DNA of 7,140 bases from Escherichia coli (GCF_003334335.1 NZ_QOWQ01000073.1), one strand, 5' to 3'. Shown: positions 33 through 5,788, counted from the stretch's first letter. Program-made: numbers and translations. The notes: generated by a model not told the origin, from the sequence alone.

Positions 33-775
33 CCATTTTTACTGTAAAACCGTGGCCAATATTACTTGACCACTACAAGTTAGCTGAGATGTTAAGCTGC
101 TGGCTGCATACACCTTGCCAAATCTAATCGCTGTTATCTTAACCAATTTCCAGGATACAAGGGGGCGATTACTGAGAATGCTCTCAGACTGTCACTCACC
201 AGATCGGATACGTTTACTGCTCAGGCGGATGCTTAATGCACTCTGTTCAGGTGCATTGCAGGTACGTTTTATGTACGCAGGTTATACGCCAGTTATCAGG
301 GATAACCCTGTGAGTACAACGCAATCTGTTGCTACTGGGTAGACTGGTCTGCTGATCACACTCACAGATTTATTTCACATATATGAACTCATGTGTTTGA
401 GCTCTCTTATATATTTATAATACCAATCAGACAGTCTTATCCCACCAGTGATACCTGTCGCCTGCCCACAGGTCACGGGCTGATGCACCACAACCGCCTT
501 CAAAAACAACTCTGCAATTATCAGAACGCCAGTTTTCCCCTTGTCTCACGAAAGTCCTCCCTCCTTTATCACGTGCGCGTGCGGAAGCATCGTTTCGCAA
601 CAATCACCCGACATACCGGTACGGCTCAGCCACCGCAATCCCCCCGTTTATCTCCTGACGGTTACATTCCCGATTATTTTTTACGTTTTTCCCCGGTTGT
701 TATGCCGGGGAAGGTGGTGCGTTGTTTTCATCACCAACGCCGGTTGAGATTAACAACATCCGGAGGAACATTTTC

Positions 776-982
776 ATGAATACCCCAGTTTCACTGATGG
801 ATGACCAGATGGTCGACATGTCGTTTATCACTCAGCTGACCGGCCTGACCGATAAATGGTTTTACAAGCTCATCAAGGATGGTGCCTTTCCTGCCCCCAT
901 CAAACTGGGCCGTAGCTCCCGATGGCTGAAAAGTGAAGTGGAAGCCTGGTTGCAGGCACGTATTACACAGTCCCGTCCGTAA
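776..982 (+). CDS. alpA: AlpA-family small HTH regulator (phage/island transcriptional regulator, excisionase-like), 68 aa
   Basis: Lies inside track ORF 722..982. I place the start at ATG 776, with GGAGG at 762-766. The product is MNTPVSLMDDQMVDMSFITQLTGLTDKWFYKLIKDGAFPAPIKLGRSSRWLKSEVEAWLQARITQSRP. Its size and layout match AlpA-type proteins: an HTH followed by FP.PIKLG.RS.RW...EV..WL. This is family-level recognition from memory and it is not the K-12 alpA ortholog sequence. Confidence 0.85.
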   Translation: MNTPVSLMDDQMVDMSFITQLTGLTDKWFYKLIKDGAFPAPIKLGRSSRWLKSEVEAWLQARITQSRP

Positions 983-1005
983 TTCCTGACCGTTATCCGT
1001 TCAAC

Positions 1006-1048
1006 CGCAGCAAAGGCATGATCCGGCCCCCGGAGGCATTTTGCTGCG
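1006..1048 (+). promoter_or_regulatory. nested stem-loop in the alpA-orf190 intergenic spacer
   Basis: Outer 9-bp stem CGCAGCAAA (1006-1014) / TTTGCTGCG (1040-1048). Inner stem TCCGG (1022-1026) / CCGGA (1030-1034). AGGCAT is repeated at 1014-1019 and 1034-1039. The structure ends 5 nt before the orf190 SD. There is no T-tract, so it is not a classical terminator. Confidence 0.4.
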
Positions 1049-1067
1049 CGCTAAAGGAGAGAATATT

Positions 1068-1640
1068 ATGCAAAAACTTGAAAACCGGTGTGAGCTGCTG
1101 CTCATCCAGCATCAGAAATGGATGACAAACGTGACGAGGCTTATCGTCGCTCATGGAATGGGGGCTCCGCATCTTCATGGTTATCACCGCCTGACCCTGG
1201 CCCACTTTTTTCTGCCAGAAAAAGGCACCATCATCTCAGTGGCACCACAGGGACTCTATCAGGTCGTCAACCCGGGAACACCACCGTTCATTCCTGCCAT
1301 TCAGGAAGGGTTAATGACCAGCATTCAGACCCATGAAATCATGCTGCTTACACATTTTAATCTGGGCGGCGTTTTACTCAGTGAGCTACATCGTCTGGGT
1401 GAAAACCGGCTGGCAAACAGGCTGAACAGCCTGCTCCGGCGTTTCAACGATCGTGATCTCTACCACACGCTGATATGGCTGTGCTGGTATGATCTGATGT
1501 GTGCTCACTCCATGCAGCCCTGGACTGAAGAGTTAAAGCATAAATCACATGCAGAGCTTGAAAACTGGGCTGTGGCGCGCAAACGGGAAAAGCGCGAGCT
1601 GGAACTGATGATTGACGAGTACCTGTTATACGCCTGTTGA
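1068..1640 (+). CDS. hypothetical protein, 190 aa, family not recognised
   Basis: The track ORF 1041..1640 begins at TTG. ATG 1068 has a strong AAGGAG at 1054-1059 (8-nt spacing), giving MQKLENRCELLLIQHQKW... It sits 85 nt downstream of alpA on the same strand, so co-transcription is plausible. There is no TM segment, P-loop or obvious HTH by eye. The C-terminus is charged and helical (KREKRELELMIDEY). Confidence 0.6.
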   Translation: MQKLENRCELLLIQHQKWMTNVTRLIVAHGMGAPHLHGYHRLTLAHFFLPEKGTIISVAPQGLYQVVNPGTPPFIPAIQEGLMTSIQTHEIMLLTHFNLGGVLLSELHRLGENRLANRLNSLLRRFNDRDLYHTLIWLCWYDLMCAHSMQPWTEELKHKSHAELENWAVARKREKRELELMIDEYLLYAC

Positions 1641-1679
1641 TTCATAACGCTCCCGGGCCTCCGCACACTTACTTTTCCT

Positions 1680-1711
1680 CCGTCACCCTCATGCAGAAGC
1701 GGGGGTGACGG
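1680..1711. terminator. weak hairpin between the convergent orf190 and DUF3987 genes (possible terminator)
   Basis: CCGTCACCC (1680-1688) pairs with GGGTGACGG (1703-1711), 9 bp with a 14-nt loop. No flanking U-tract on either strand. Only its position between two convergent stop codons suggests a terminator role. Confidence 0.25.
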
Positions 1712-1760
1712 GCATACTGCGATACCACCACTGAATAATCCGTCTCAGCAACAGGGAACA

Positions 1761-3251
1761 TTATAAGCCAAAGGATTGCTCATGCCATCTTATCAGTTTC
1801 TGGCTGTAGCACGCATTCAGTTCAGGCAGCGTGATATTGTTTATTTCGGAAAGCAGGACATAGGTGGTTTTTCCTTCCTGCACGACAGAGAGCCTGAGTT
1901 GAGATGCAAGAATGTTCAGCAGGACGTTCAGCTTTTTCCTGTTCCGGAACCGGCCCGGGCCACACTGGAGAATATAATTTTTCCTGACACGGGGCGGGCA
2001 TTCTCCGCGGCACTCCTCAATGAGCCAGTCGAGCAGCTCCCGGGCGTCCTGCAGCTGCAGTTCAGATTCGTCAGGTAACGCAAATAATTTTTTATATTCA
2101 TCTGTGTACCACGAACTTATTACGACAGCAGACGTCATGATATCGGCAGAGATTTTCCCTTCACCCTGACTGAAATACTGCAATAACGCAGCAATTCTCG
2201 CAATGTTTTCTGTTTTTTTTGAAACATGCCCCCGAAACTGGCTTAAGGGTCCGGAAGGAGACAAATCCTGCTCCAGAACATTATAGTGATCAATAAATAT
2301 TTTTTGCGCTTCAGGAGAAAAATGCAGACAATAACGTTCATCCTTACTGGATTTTTCAATACTGCCTCTGGCCAGTTCCATTAATCGTTCATGAAATGCC
2401 GTTAATGATCCTCCCGGGGTCACAGCTCCGTTAATAAAGCGTTTCCCCTGCGTGGTGGCAGGTTTACTGATTAGACAACGGGCAAGAAAACCACTGTCCC
2501 TGGCAACAGAACCTTTTCGCTCCATATATCGGTCAAAAAGACCGGGTTGTACCATGAGGGATAATGTCATTCTAGCATTTTCAATCATCTGTTCGGGTTC
2601 ATTCTTTCTGTCCACCGACAATACGGAGCCATCCCACATTTTGTTAATAAAAGGCAGCTCAGACAGGGTATACCCATCAAATATTATACCGGCTTCATCA
2701 GACATGATACCCACTGAACGCCACTGACCACAAAGCTGATCTTTAATTGCTGCTGTCGTGGCATCATTAAAAATGAATTTATATCTTACAGGTTTTTCCC
2801 CTCTGTTTTTCTGAAGCGCTTCCAGTTGTCTGAGCGTTTCTGACTCATCCGCGCCTTTGCGGAGTTCTTTATTCAGTTTTGACAACAATGCTTTTTTCTG
2901 CGCCTTTAAAAGCTCTTCCTTATTTTTCCATATCGTCAGTTCATTTTTGTGTCTGGAATATAACAGCATCTCCTGCTGGTACAGGGGCTCCATTAATAAT
3001 TTGTCCACTGCGGTTTTTCGTTCTCCGGACTCAGCAAGCGTCAGTAAGAAAAGAGAAACCGGCCCCCGCAGTGTATTCAGTCTGCAGACATCAATCAGAT
3101 TCTGGCAGACAAGTGAAACAGCGCCCAGGGCAGATGCTGCCACAAGCCCCAGGGGAGCCTGCGTGATTTGCTGAGCTTCAATAACGGCATCACGAATGAG
3201 TGGAGGCAGCGAGCTCAGGGGAAACTCATCAGGATACTGAAAGTATGGCAT
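1761..3251 (-). CDS. DUF3987 / YfjI-like island protein, 496 aa, with Walker A-like and Walker B-like motifs
   Basis: Track ORF 1761..3269. The preferred start is ATG at 3251 (minus strand), preceded by GAGG at 3260-3257 with 5-nt spacing. The N-terminus MPYFQYPDEFPLSSLPPLIRDAVIEAQQITQAPLGLVAASALGAVSLVCQ matches the conserved YfjI/DUF3987 N-terminal pattern as I remember it. AESGERKT (aa 73-80) resembles a Walker A and VGIMSDEAG resembles a Walker B. Confidence 0.85.
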   Translation of the reverse strand: MPYFQYPDEFPLSSLPPLIRDAVIEAQQITQAPLGLVAASALGAVSLVCQNLIDVCRLNTLRGPVSLFLLTLAESGERKTAVDKLLMEPLYQQEMLLYSRHKNELTIWKNKEELLKAQKKALLSKLNKELRKGADESETLRQLEALQKNRGEKPVRYKFIFNDATTAAIKDQLCGQWRSVGIMSDEAGIIFDGYTLSELPFINKMWDGSVLSVDRKNEPEQMIENARMTLSLMVQPGLFDRYMERKGSVARDSGFLARCLISKPATTQGKRFINGAVTPGGSLTAFHERLMELARGSIEKSSKDERYCLHFSPEAQKIFIDHYNVLEQDLSPSGPLSQFRGHVSKKTENIARIAALLQYFSQGEGKISADIMTSAVVISSWYTDEYKKLFALPDESELQLQDARELLDWLIEECRGECPPRVRKNYILQCGPGRFRNRKKLNVLLNILASQLRLSVVQEGKTTYVLLSEINNITLPELNACYSQKLIRWHEQSFGL

Positions 3252-4084
3252 AATGACCTCACAACACACAGAACATAAAGTACCGCAACTATTGCTACTA
3301 ATAGCAAAAATAGCAGCAGAATCAATACAGGATAAAAATTTCTGTCGATTTTCAGATTAAATAATAACCATTCGGTATTTTGTCGCTAAAGAATGTTAGA
3401 ATGAATCTGTGCGTCTACGGGCGCTCTCCGGAACACACATGTTGATTAATTTTCACACAACAACGTACCAGCAAAAAGCATCATCCAGGGTATTGCAGGT
3501 ACGGGTTTCCTGCCGGGAATAAACATAAACAGTTTCCCCGGAGTAACGCTTTCAGAAAACTGCCCTCCTGAAGAAGAATAAAATAAAGAAGATGACAGTT
3601 CCTGCACTGAATGCTGAGTACAATATTCTATGGACAGGATGACATTTTTATAAATAACAAAAACCATTTAATACTGATACATCAATAAAATACTTCCTCC
3701 CTGCTGACACAGATAAAATGCAACATTTTTTCTTCAAATACTTCTGTATAATCGCCAGCCAATGATGAGAATGGATTAAAATAACACTTCTTCGACAAAC
3801 ACAAAAACCAGCCTTCATTTTCACATCATCATCCAGTTTTAATTAAACCCTGACGAGCGACAGTATTTCAGTTCAGGAATTAAAAGCCAGCTATTACTCA
3901 GTAAAAACACCACCAACTAATAATATCTCAGCAGATATTTCCTGACCAGGATGACACATTTATTAAAGATTTTTAACAGGACACTTCACATTACTGAACG
4001 CTATTCCGACAGTATCACTACACAAATAAAAAAGGGAACTGGATAAATATTCATGCCGGAAGAATGGTGTAACAAAAGCATTTA

Positions 4085-4097
4085 ATCATTACGTGCG
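4085..4097. repeat. 13-bp direct repeat ATCATTACGTGCG, copy 1
   Basis: Exact match to 4209-4221. It lies 14 bp left of the palindrome. Confidence 0.7.
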
Positions 4098-4110
4098 TAT
4101 TCCTCTCTAT

Positions 4111-4140
4111 TCGATCACGGTTTGGCCAAACCGTGATCGA
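4111..4140. repeat. perfect 30-bp palindrome TCGATCACGGTTTGG|CCAAACCGTGATCGA
   Basis: The reverse complement of 4111-4125 equals 4126-4140 exactly. It contains GATC at 4113-4116 and 4135-4138 and a central TGGCCA. The palindrome does not extend beyond these ends (T4110/T4141 mismatch). Confidence 0.9.
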
Positions 4141-4208
4141 TTCAGATGCCATTTTGCAAGTACGCATGACCCGGAAGGGAAACACTTAACAACATGGTAT
4201 CAACAGAT

Positions 4209-4221
4209 ATCATTACGTGCG
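4209..4221. repeat. 13-bp direct repeat ATCATTACGTGCG, copy 2
   Basis: Exact match to 4085-4097. It lies 69 bp right of the palindrome. Confidence 0.7.
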
Positions 4222-4357
4222 CACTCTTATAAAAATACACAGCAGAAGCAAGATAACTCTAAACGTAAATTTAATATCTCCCACTGACTGCCCCGACAAT
4301 ATACTGAAAAATACTCACCTCAGTAAACATAAACACACCTGATAATCAGGCTGCAAG

Positions 4358-4441
4358 ATGAATATTTTTCTCCTTTACGGAGTAATCAGCCTGCTGTTTA
4401 ACAATAACCGCGTATTTTCATGGAAGGATATCACCCAATAA
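4358..4441 (+). CDS. speculative 27-aa small ORF MNIFLLYGVISLLFNNNRVFSWKDITQ
   Basis: ATG 4358 to TAA 4439-4441. Only a weak AGG (4348-4350) lies upstream. The N-terminal half is hydrophobic. It is the only small ORF positioned upstream of the 4528-4566 terminator. No homology recognised. Confidence 0.2.
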   Translation: MNIFLLYGVISLLFNNNRVFSWKDITQ

Positions 4442-4527
4442 CGGATAACTCCTGCCCTCCTTCATGTTAATACGCAACATCCCCATCGATTCCAAACAAT
4501 TTCAGACAGATATTATCTCCGTGAATC

Positions 4528-4566
4528 CCCCGCCACCTTTCCGGTGTGCGGGGTTTTGTCTTTTTT
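4528..4566 (+). terminator. intrinsic terminator 17 nt upstream of the yeeP start codon
   Basis: CCCCGCCACC (4528-4537) pairs with GGTG-T-GCGGGG (4543-4553), giving 10 bp with one bulged T4547 and loop TTTCC. It is followed by TTTTGTCTTTTTT (4554-4566). There is no T-run on the opposite strand, so it is + strand specific. Confidence 0.75.
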
Positions 4567-4582
4567 CACCGGGAATACATGT

Positions 4583-5455
4583 ATGAATCCGTCTGATGCC
4601 ATTGAGGCAATTGAAAAACCACTTTCTTCCCTGCCTTACTCGCTTTCCCGTCACATCCTGGAACATCTGCGCAAACTCACCAGTCACGAACCCGTGATTG
4701 GCATTATGGGTAAAAGCGGGGCCGGTAAATCCTCACTCTGTAATGCACTGTTTCAGGGGGAGGTCACCCCGGTCAGTGATGTTCACGCCGGCACCCGGGA
4801 AGTGCGGCGCTTCCGTCTGAGTGGCCACGGTCACAGCATGGTTATCACTGACCTGCCCGGGGTGGGCGAGAGCCGGGACAGGGATGCAGAGTATGAAGCC
4901 CTGTACCGTGACATTCTGCCTGAACTGGACCTGGTGCTGTGGCTGATTAAAGCCGATGACCGGGCCCTGTCTGTGGATGAGTATTTCTGGCGACACATCC
5001 TGCAGTGCGGACATCAGCAGGTGCTGTTTGTGGTGACACAGGCCGACAAAACGGAGCCCTGCCATGAATGGGATATGGCCGGCATTCAGCCCTCTCCCGC
5101 ACAGGCACAGAACATTCGCGAAAAAACGGAGGCGGTATTCCGTCTGTTCCGGCCTGTACATCCGGTTGTGGCCGTATCGGCCCGCACCGGCTGGGAACTG
5201 GATACGCTGGTCAGTGCGCTCATGACAGCGCTTCCCGACCATGCCGCCAGTCCCCTGATGACCCGCCTGCAGGACGAGCTGCGCACGGAATCTGTCCGCG
5301 CTCAGGCCCGTGAGCAGTTTACCGGTGCGGTGGACCGGATATTTGACACAGCGGAGAGCGTCTGTGTTGCCTCTGTTGCACGCACGGTTCTGCGTGCCGT
5401 CCGTGACACAGTGGTCTCTGTTGCCCGCGCGGTATGGAACTGGATCTTCTTCTGA
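4583..5455 (+). CDS. yeeP: YeeP/YkfA/YfjP-family prophage GTPase (50S ribosome-binding GTPase fold), intact, 290 aa
   Basis: Track ORF 4544..5455 begins at GTG inside a terminator hairpin. ATG 4583 gives MNPSDAIEAIEKPLSSLPYSLSRHILEHL..., which I recognise as the YeeP-family N-terminus. G1 P-loop is GKSGAGKSS, G3 is DLPG, and the G4-like motif is TQADK. The hydrophobic/amphipathic C-terminal tail is ...VVSVARAVWNWIFF. It lies directly upstream of agn43, as in CP4-44-type islands. Confidence 0.9.
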   Translation: MNPSDAIEAIEKPLSSLPYSLSRHILEHLRKLTSHEPVIGIMGKSGAGKSSLCNALFQGEVTPVSDVHAGTREVRRFRLSGHGHSMVITDLPGVGESRDRDAEYEALYRDILPELDLVLWLIKADDRALSVDEYFWRHILQCGHQQVLFVVTQADKTEPCHEWDMAGIQPSPAQAQNIREKTEAVFRLFRPVHPVVAVSARTGWELDTLVSALMTALPDHAASPLMTRLQDELRTESVRAQAREQFTGAVDRIFDTAESVCVASVARTVLRAVRDTVVSVARAVWNWIFF

Positions 5456-5526
5456 ACCTGTTGTGGATGATGTCCTCCTTGCCTCTGAGTCTGCTCACAA
5501 AAGCGCTGTTTTCGTTACTGTCTCTC

Positions 5527-5555: not shown

Positions 5556-5600
5556 AAAACGATCGATACCTATTTTATCGATCGTTAATATCGATCGTTA
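5556..5600. promoter_or_regulatory. agn43 phase-variation operator: three Dam GATC sites within the OxyR-binding region
   Basis: GATC occurs at 5561-5564, 5580-5583 and 5593-5596, each in a CGATCG context. ATCGATCGTTA is repeated at 5577-5587 and 5590-5600. The position immediately downstream of the -10 matches the published Dam/OxyR switch of agn43. Confidence 0.85.
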
Positions 5601-5760
5601 TGCTAATAATAACTCCTGTTAGCAACGTGCACAGATACACACAGACATGAGATTCAGGGAACAACAGAGCCACACGTCAGAAACTTCCGTCAGCCGGACC
5701 TCCGGCACTGTAACCCTTTACCTGCCGGTATCCACATCTGTGGATACCGGCTTTTTTATT
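5562..5760 (+). ncRNA. isrC: agn43 leader / IsrC-like terminated leader transcript (~200 nt)
   Basis: It runs from the predicted start (~5562) to the leader terminator T-tract (5752-5760), which ends 28 nt before the flu ATG. In K-12, as I recall it, isrC (~195 nt) lies between yeeP and flu on the flu strand and ends shortly before flu. The boundaries here are inferred, not mapped. Confidence 0.5.
5724..5760 (+). terminator. intrinsic terminator inside the agn43 5' leader
   Basis: Perfect 12-bp stem GCCGGTATCCAC (5724-5735) / GTGGATACCGGC (5740-5751), loop ATCT, followed by TTTTTTATT (5752-5760). Confidence 0.8.
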
Positions 5761-5788
5761 CACCCTCACTCTGATTAAGGAAATGCTG

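Follow-up and report, generated by a model that had tools for sequence, protein, structure and literature searches.

A YfjI-family protein with an MCM-like ATPase fold, probably a helicase, encoded convergently with alpA in an Escherichia coli island

Members of the DUF3987 family have been assigned to superfamily 6 (MCM-like), carry a C-terminal wHTH domain (PMC4889955) and are frequently fused to primases (PMC4889955; PMC5862659). AgaPH, a PriCT-DUF3987 protein from a mobile element of Seonamhaeicola and the sole characterised DUF3987 helicase, is an oligomeric, ATP/dATP-dependent 5'-3' enzyme whose helicase activity is abolished by K213A in Walker A or by E297Q in Walker B (PMC11724360). 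In the PICMI satellites of Vibrionaceae, the int-alpA-prim core contains in prim a gene that is needed for replication and is marked by DUF3987 and DUF5906 profiles (PMC10803314). The best known setting of the YfjI subfamily is the CP4-57 element of E. coli K-12, where the order is intA, yfjH, alpA, yfjI, yfjJ with the last three genes on one strand; the shared strand of alpA and yfjI had been stated in a preliminary description of the locus analysed here, and was confirmed in the K-12 annotation. A full-text literature search for 'YfjI' returned passing mentions only, and insertions in K-12 yfjI have been found to be consistently neutral without cross-feeding (bioRxiv 10.64898/2026.05.27.727350). 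The statement in the preliminary description that the function of the family is not established holds for the YfjI subfamily, and for DUF3987 as a whole it is superseded by the superfamily 6 assignment (PMC4889955) and by the helicase activity of AgaPH (PMC11724360).

The stretch of DNA analysed here (the window) is a segment of 7,140 bases from an E. coli island. Many RefSeq chromosomes match it at 99.9-100% identity, and at least 80% of its length is present as one collinear piece in 1,272 of 5,426 complete E. coli genomes. The features of the window are as follows.

776-982, plus strand: alpA-like HTH / excisionase-type gene (PGAP and ORF list), convergent with the yfjI-like gene; 51.2% G+C
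1068-1640, plus strand: orf190, hypothetical protein (PGAP CDS), same direction as alpA; 51.0% G+C
1641-1760, intergenic: spacer between orf190 and the yfjI-like gene; 55.8% G+C
1761-3251, minus strand: yfjI-like CDS of 496 aa with an ATG start (ORF list and PGAP 'YfjI family protein'); 45.9% G+C (GC3 46.5%)
3252-4582, intergenic: stretch of 1.33 kb without annotation; 38.2% G+C
3252-4488, no strand: AT-rich part co-inherited with the yfjI-like gene (G+C content and genome counts); ~38% G+C
1659-4488, no strand: replaceable module of 2.83 kb, gene plus AT-rich stretch (synteny)
4583-5455, plus strand: yeeP-like GTPase gene (PGAP CDS), divergent from the yfjI-like gene, where the high-GC right flank begins; 58.8% G+C
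5789 onward, plus strand: agn43 (PGAP annotation of an identical copy)

Since the ORF list and PGAP agree, the interval 1761-3251 singled out in the preliminary description is exactly the annotated gene. This gene is already annotated in RefSeq, belongs to a known helicase family and is widespread, at least 80% of its length being present in about 1,840 of the 5,426 complete E. coli genomes, where two allele groups were distinguished, one with at least 99% identity (705 genomes) and one with 90-95% identity (1,106 genomes). The alpA-like gene matched Pfam Phage_AlpA (E 9.6e-9) and a PHROG labelled 'excisionase and transcriptional regulator', and the yeeP-like gene matched Pfam MMR_HSR1 (E 1.3e-14). 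The product of orf190, for which no match was obtained in Pfam, NCBIfam, PHROGs or PADLOC, shows just 36% amino acid identity between two island types. No integrase was found in the 7,140-nt window, and no primase gene adjoins the yfjI-like gene.

The alpA gene and orf190 face the yfjI-like gene, and this convergence, which had been described previously as an inversion relative to alpA, was compared with gene order elsewhere in the family. In all seven canonical loci sampled (K-12 and six others) alpA leads into yfjI, across a gap of 10-140 bp in the six others, and the defence cargo after yfjJ consists of BREX, Hachiman or restriction-modification systems, or of AbpAB in K-12. A broader survey encompassed 80 loci from species-representative genomes, 62 of them with an AlpA-like ORF in reach; as these loci had been retrieved by a GERK peptide pattern, they were used for gene order only and not for motif frequency. 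In 57 of the 62 loci the AlpA-like ORF precedes yfjI on the shared strand (within 400 bp in 44), in three it follows yfjI on that strand and in two it is divergent; yfjJ follows yfjI in the same direction in 40 survey loci. A convergent AlpA-like ORF was present in none of the 62, indicating that the layout of the window departs from the family norm, as the preliminary description had supposed. The convergent layout is fixed in both E. coli allele groups. Measured against the CP4-57-type core, alpA lies downstream on the opposite strand instead of directly upstream on the same strand, and the position directly downstream of yfjI, taken in the core by yfjJ (YagK_YfjJ_C / REP_ORF2-G2P), is occupied by orf190 and alpA. 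A gene of the 'inovirus Gp2 family' (gpII-like) is located ~3 kb beyond alpA in the island, on the same strand as the yfjI-like gene.

Several routes to this arrangement were considered. A plain flip of the alpA-yfjI pair was ruled out by the alpA product of the window, which shares just 25-30% identity with the AlpA proteins adjoining canonical yfjI. An inverted repeat at 1813-1846 / 3581-3614 scores 27 of 34, where the best of 40 shuffles reached 26, and has a protein-level echo at E 0.21; inversion via this repeat is unproven, as the 94% allele lacks arm 1 although its orientation is the same. The sole real peculiarity of the locus is a lineage-specific rearrangement that detaches the presumed helicase gene from AlpA and YfjJ, and an equally valid description has an alpA-orf190 (plus hha) block lying between yfjI and the partner gene that once followed it.

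Base composition was re-examined because the preliminary description had placed the gene, together with its upstream region, in a low-GC insert of roughly 2.8 kb between higher-GC modules. The 60-nt spot counts given there (0.30, 0.433 and 0.60) are exact but noisy samples, and the value of about 63% quoted for yeeP is higher than the 58.8% measured over the whole gene. Two-breakpoint maximum-likelihood segmentation placed the strongest breaks at 3220 and 4520, so that the pronounced low-GC block corresponds to the non-coding stretch of ~1.3 kb and not to the gene; a third, weak breakpoint was located at ~2060, within the yfjI-like gene. A sharp step is present on the right, at ~4520-4640, and none at ~1700 on the left. 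In seven other yfjI genes (K-12, another E. coli, Enterobacter-type, Yersinia, Dickeya, Klebsiella and other Enterobacterales) the G+C content is 35-46%, and low G+C is a general trait of yfjI and no peculiarity of this locus.

Although the 2.8-kb insert has no left boundary as a GC-defined block, it was recovered by synteny as a replaceable module. Strain M9 shares window 181-1658 (alpA-orf190) and 4489-5457 (yeeP with a 95-bp leader), and between these flanks carries different DNA, consisting of an IS1 fragment and a regulator gene. At least 80% of 3252-4582 was present in 1,813 genomes versus 1,840 for the gene, and the last ~95 bp alone of this stretch are common to thousands of other yeeP loci. 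The M9 synteny and the matching genome counts show that 1659-4488 behaves as one replaceable module, and the gene is inherited with its 1.2-kb AT-rich upstream stretch as a single 2.8-kb unit beside yeeP-agn43. The stretch 3252-4582 has no annotated feature in any of the 1,813 carrier genomes, and searches of it gave no int, alpA, yfjH or yfjJ remnants (tblastn), no Rfam match and no ORF conserved between alleles; its core at 3550-3850 shows 92-98% identity when the two island types are compared. Scans for consensus promoters and terminators did not rise above the shuffle background, and no promoter or bidirectional terminator is therefore claimed. In a search for iterons or tandem repeats of an origin, no tandem arrays were detected, and CAGGATGACA occurred twice, as it did in 23 of 200 shuffles. 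AT-rich DNA in E. coli is expected to attract H-NS. Judging from this anatomy, the own promoter of the yfjI-like gene would presumably lie within 3252-4488 and be subject to H-NS-type silencing.

The assignment of the gene to DUF3987/YfjI in the preliminary description, in agreement with the RefSeq name, was borne out by an end-to-end match to Pfam DUF3987 (PF13148; profile positions 1-363 of 364, E 2.1e-94, 317 bits against a cut-off of 27). The protein also matched a PHROG labelled 'DNA helicase' (E 3e-81) and no model in NCBIfam. Searches of PDB chain sequences, with the single protein and with a profile, returned nothing significant, and the link to MCM therefore needed a fold comparison. 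A first structure model based on 30 close YfjI sequences (pLDDT 60) left the ATPase core unmodelled and was discarded; an alignment of 80 sequences with 30-54% identity yielded an AlphaFold model with a pLDDT of 93.5 and a pTM of 0.88. In this predicted structure the fold of the AAA+ core is closest to that of MCM, and in a Foldseek search against viral models the matches were to phage DUF3987, primase-helicase and helicase proteins. Residues 1-50 form only a short helical domain in the model, and no Pfam MCM match was obtained; the protein is an MCM-like motor outside the MCM family proper. Its motifs and C-terminal parts are located as follows.

3012-3035, minus strand: Walker A / P-loop AESGERKT, residues 73-80, with the catalytic Lys79 (translation)
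2688-2708, minus strand: Walker B IMSDEAG, residues 182-188, with Glu186 (translation)
1848-1991, minus strand: C-terminal winged-helix domain, ~residues 421-468 of the yfjI-like CDS
1764-1847, minus strand: C-terminal extension, residues 469-496, clade- and allele-specific, past the usual 469-aa end of the family

Both Walker motifs had been read correctly in the preliminary description. In the predicted structure the P-loop follows strand 68-72 and opens helix 79-131, and Walker B stands at the end of strand 179-184. The C-terminal tail (pLDDT ~60) is wholly different in the 94% allele, DNA homology to which begins only at 1842. The product is best regarded as an intact stand-alone member of YfjI/DUF3987, a putative SF6 MCM-like AAA+ ATPase with the predicted order of N-terminal helical domain, P-loop core, lid and C-terminal winged helix. 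By homology, its most likely mechanism would be the unwinding of DNA by an oligomeric ring using ATP, which would be bound by Lys79 and Thr80 and hydrolysed with Glu186; Gln235 is a candidate for sensor 1, and Arg258, Arg271 and Arg352 are candidate Arg-finger and sensor residues.

The closest of the known systems is the YfjI of K-12 CP4-57 (b2625) and of other Enterobacterales, a protein of 469 aa that agrees with the window protein in Pfam family and domain architecture (52% identity across 460 residues), has identical SGERK[ST] and SDE motifs, and is likewise encoded by a low-GC gene on an integrative island. It differs in having alpA 40-240 bp upstream on the same strand and yfjJ next, where the window has the convergent alpA-orf190 unit and yfjJ is not adjacent, and in ending without the 27-aa C-terminal extension and lacking ten private substitutions found in the window protein. 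AgaPH, compared here by its published description, shares the DUF3987 ATPase with a small C-terminal domain, and its essential Lys and Glu correspond to K79 and E186, but it has an N-terminal PriCT and an adjacent primase-polymerase partner, neither of which accompanies the window protein. The spacing between the two residues is 84 in AgaPH and 107 in the window protein, where the extra length is due to a long helical hairpin that the model places after the P-loop helix. MCM helicases (archaeal MCM, eukaryotic Mcm2-7 and MCM8/9) are just 8-15% identical in sequence to the window protein, which lacks their N-terminal OB/zinc domain and has Arg in place of their Ala/Ser. The unwinding polarity of MCM is opposite to 5'-3', the direction in which AgaPH runs. 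The PICMI satellites combine an integrase, AlpA and a DUF3987 replication gene into a minimal core for excision and replication, by the same logic as the canonical int-alpA-yfjI-yfjJ order, but they are 6-gene satellites, in which int, alpA and a DUF3987/DUF5906 primase form a small element by fis that a helper phage induces, whereas the host of the window is a large E. coli pathogenicity-type island whose segment analysed here has no integrase, no DUF5906 and another gene order, the DUF3987 gene not lying downstream of alpA. We know of no helper phage for this island. Cch (SCCmec) and the SaPI primase-helicase resemble the window protein much less than MCM does, and belong to different families (Cch; DUF927/D5-type) with different partners.

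Selection on the gene was estimated against the 94% allele: dN/dS was 0.17 over the core (residues 8-468) and 0.13 in the ATPase domain, and yeeP and alpA each gave 0.12. The whole-gene value of 0.32 is inflated because the termini are unrelated between the alleles. The values of 0.13-0.17 indicate purifying selection. The clade of the window is found in E. coli only and is the most divergent YfjI sampled, with a mean identity of 51% to the others, which are 54-74% identical among themselves, and a best identity of 55-60% in representatives of other species. Ten of its substitutions, including KDYASK -> RGHVSK, are private to the clade and fall at positions that do not vary in the rest of YfjI, and a tail of ~27 aa extends past the usual end. 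Two of the clusters that appeared to represent N-terminally truncated 'alleles' (312-410 aa) or 77-80% 'intermediates' were looked up, and neither proved to be a true variant: one was an artefact of a contig end and the other a low-quality assembly with a frameshift.

The alternative that fares best, and is still unlikely, is that the gene is a functionless relic, cut off from int, alpA and yfjJ and hitch-hiking with a successful yeeP-agn43 island. The loss of the canonical linkage, the ten private substitutions at family-invariant sites and the read-through C-terminal tail that differs between alleles would all be expected of such a relic, as would the dispensability of yfjI in the laboratory in K-12 (bioRxiv 10.64898/2026.05.27.727350) and upstream DNA that is AT-rich and probably silenced. 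Against this, the reading frame is uninterrupted in the two allele groups, which are ~6% apart in DNA, the core dN/dS matches that of the neighbouring genes, every catalytic or family-invariant residue in the wide alignment described below is kept, and the upstream stretch is co-inherited and contains a conserved core.

A less probable alternative is that the MCM-like ATPase has been recruited to another job, such as interference with phages or mobile elements, or regulation tied to the divergent yeeP GTPase. The YfjI-like protein gave no match to the PADLOC defence-system models, its similarity to BrxL is far weaker than that to MCM, YfjI in canonical elements is part of the conserved core and not of the variable cargo, and no partner gene specific to the 2.8-kb module was found, all of which argue against recruitment. 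It is comparably doubtful that the E. coli-only cassette of helicase gene and AT-rich stretch is autonomous, having escaped AlpA control and been selected for a new purpose. Were this so, one possibility would be a helicase-plus-origin unit that amplifies the large yeeP-agn43 island when triggered, and the other a motor turned against phages or competing elements.

The P-loop, which the preliminary description had considered non-canonical, was compared across the family. The pattern [LIM]A[ED]SGERK[ST] was present in all N-terminally complete sequences (111) among the 120 best homologs, bar one ERKN cluster representative, and A73, S75, G76, E77, R78 and K79 were invariant in an alignment of 30 YfjI sequences. 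A library of 1.84 billion proteins supplied a wider sample of 149 cluster representatives with 32-47% identity. Arg occupied position 78 in 143 of these and Gly in 6, Lys79 was conserved in 149/149 and position 80 was Ser or Thr in 149/149. Within Walker B, E186 was conserved in 147 and D185 in just 65, which places the SDE of the window on the 'complete' side; elsewhere Q235 was conserved in 145, R258 in 147, R271 in 145 and R352 in 147. The window protein retains SGERK[ST], the Walker B Glu, Q235, R258, R271, K345, R352 and R436, each of which is kept in 143-149 of the 149 representatives. Arg78 was found in every one of the 28 long N-terminal fusions (650 aa or more), and ERKS in primase/helicases of Streptococcus phage Javan191 and of two gut phages, which are 22-27% identical; in a protein of an Aeromonas phage its place is taken by GTGKS. 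The Walker A motif is therefore family-typical and not exceptional, and SGERK[ST], with Arg for the classical Gly, is on the evidence of these alignments the normal active-site signature of DUF3987 and no lesion; a P-loop of the Arg type would be expected to be active. A bulky Arg at the site of the second Gly is unusual for P-loop NTPases in general. The suggestion that this Arg marks a YfjI copy with altered or lost NTPase activity, understandable as AESGERKT does depart from GxxxxGK[ST], was rejected as very improbable, since Arg is the consensus of the family and invariant in the YfjI subfamily, occurs in phage primase/helicases and in every long fusion, and stands where the related MCM proteins, with their Walker A of GDP[GS]T[AS]KS (e.g. 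GDPGTAKS or GDPSTSKS), likewise have no Gly but Ala/Ser (PMC2952866, Table 1), while AgaPH is a proven helicase and the catalytic Lys and Glu are intact in an ATPase domain under purifying selection.

Taken together, the gene is probably best explained as encoding a YfjI/DUF3987 MCM-like helicase with a normal P-loop, detached from the AlpA core in an E. coli lineage. In its usual setting YfjI would supply the helicase to the core that excises and replicates small integrative elements, in the order integrase ... AlpA -> YfjI -> YfjJ (gpII/REP_ORF2-like), followed by variable, often anti-phage, cargo; in the E. coli lineage the helicase gene would have been parted from this core and placed tail to tail with a distantly related alpA-orf190 unit, where the protein may assemble into a ring, act as a helicase and serve in replicating the excised island. 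The uncoupling, being lineage-specific, is a small evolutionary footnote, and would carry weight only if the cassette has a new role. Of wider use is that GERKT, which looks broken, is what members of the large DUF3987 helicase family normally carry and should not be read as loss of function, and that a K-12 y-gene family still labelled 'unknown function' gains a usable annotation, YfjI probably being an MCM-like helicase that normally resides in the int-alpA-helicase-gpII-like core of small defence-carrying islands.

The yfjI gene (1761-3251, minus strand) and the AT-rich stretch upstream of it were always co-inherited. The features of this unit are as follows.

3252-4488: AT-rich stretch of 1.24 kb, without annotation
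1813-1846 and 3581-3614: arms of a 34-nt inverted repeat, bracketing yfjI
4111-4140, inside 4094-4160: perfect 30-bp palindrome (TCGATCACGGTTTGG/CCAAACCGTGATCGA)

No match was obtained in an Rfam search of the AT-rich stretch, and no ORF conserved between the two E. coli island types was found within it. Between these types a 300-bp core (3550-3850) displayed 92-98% identity, a conservation exceeding that of the yfjI gene itself (94%), and the 200 bp adjoining the yfjI start retained merely 63-78%.

The palindrome is flanked by an 18-nt direct repeat at 4085 and 4209, and the 67-bp segment that holds it (4094-4160) is missing from the island carrying the 94% allele. Part of this segment matched plasmid DNA annotated as 'ISL3 family transposase' and also a reverse-strand site in strain M9, which has different DNA between orf190 and yeeP. 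Possible sources of the segment are the footprint of an IS end and a very small MITE.

The arms of the inverted repeat agree at 27/34 positions, compared with a maximum of 26 in 40 dinucleotide shuffles. The first arm starts at the exact end point of canonical YfjI proteins (residue 469) and the second, translated on the plus strand (KKNKIKKMTVPALNAEYN), faintly resembles the C-terminus of YfjI (E 0.21). The repeat may be left over from the rearrangement, a candidate reading that is not established. Both E. coli yfjI alleles run approximately 25-27 codons beyond the usual family end into unrelated DNA (window 1761-1847 versus 8926-9000 of the comparison locus L003), with tails ending ...NNITLPELNACYSQKLIRWHEQSFGL and ...IASLKLSDVSGIFTSGYHYNKLRAK, which suggests that recombination, with a junction near 1842-1846, removed the original stop codon.

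The neighbouring orf190 (1068-1640, plus strand) is hypervariable, with 36% amino-acid identity over 187 residues and saturated dS against L003 8002-8604, unlike the flanking alpA and yfjI, whose DNA is 84-94% identical between island types. No match to orf190 was found in Pfam, NCBIfam, PHROGs or PADLOC.

At the left edge, positions 1-69 belong to the terminal part of a transposase gene of the IS3 family and the approximately 700 bp preceding alpA (70-775) contain no annotated feature; in related islands an hha gene, truncated or full, lies just upstream. Between yeeP and agn43, the Rfam IS102 sRNA gave a full-length match (5559-5764, 255 bits), whose 5' end overlaps three closely spaced GATC sites at 5561, 5580 and 5593, a layout familiar from the Dam/OxyR switch that controls agn43 phase variation.

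In canonical elements with the order int-alpA-yfjI-yfjJ, opposite-strand anti-phage systems directly follow yfjJ and differ between elements. The DNA after yfjJ in these loci is as follows.

L002: 8352-12154
L004: 8288-12971
L007: 8539-12499
L010: 10020-13410
L019/L020: 6429-9464

The systems comprise BrxL/PglZ (BREX), HamA with a DEAD helicase (Hachiman) and type I/III restriction-modification, and AbpAB occupies this place in K-12. Therefore, the YfjI core is a marker of a family of small defence-carrying islands.
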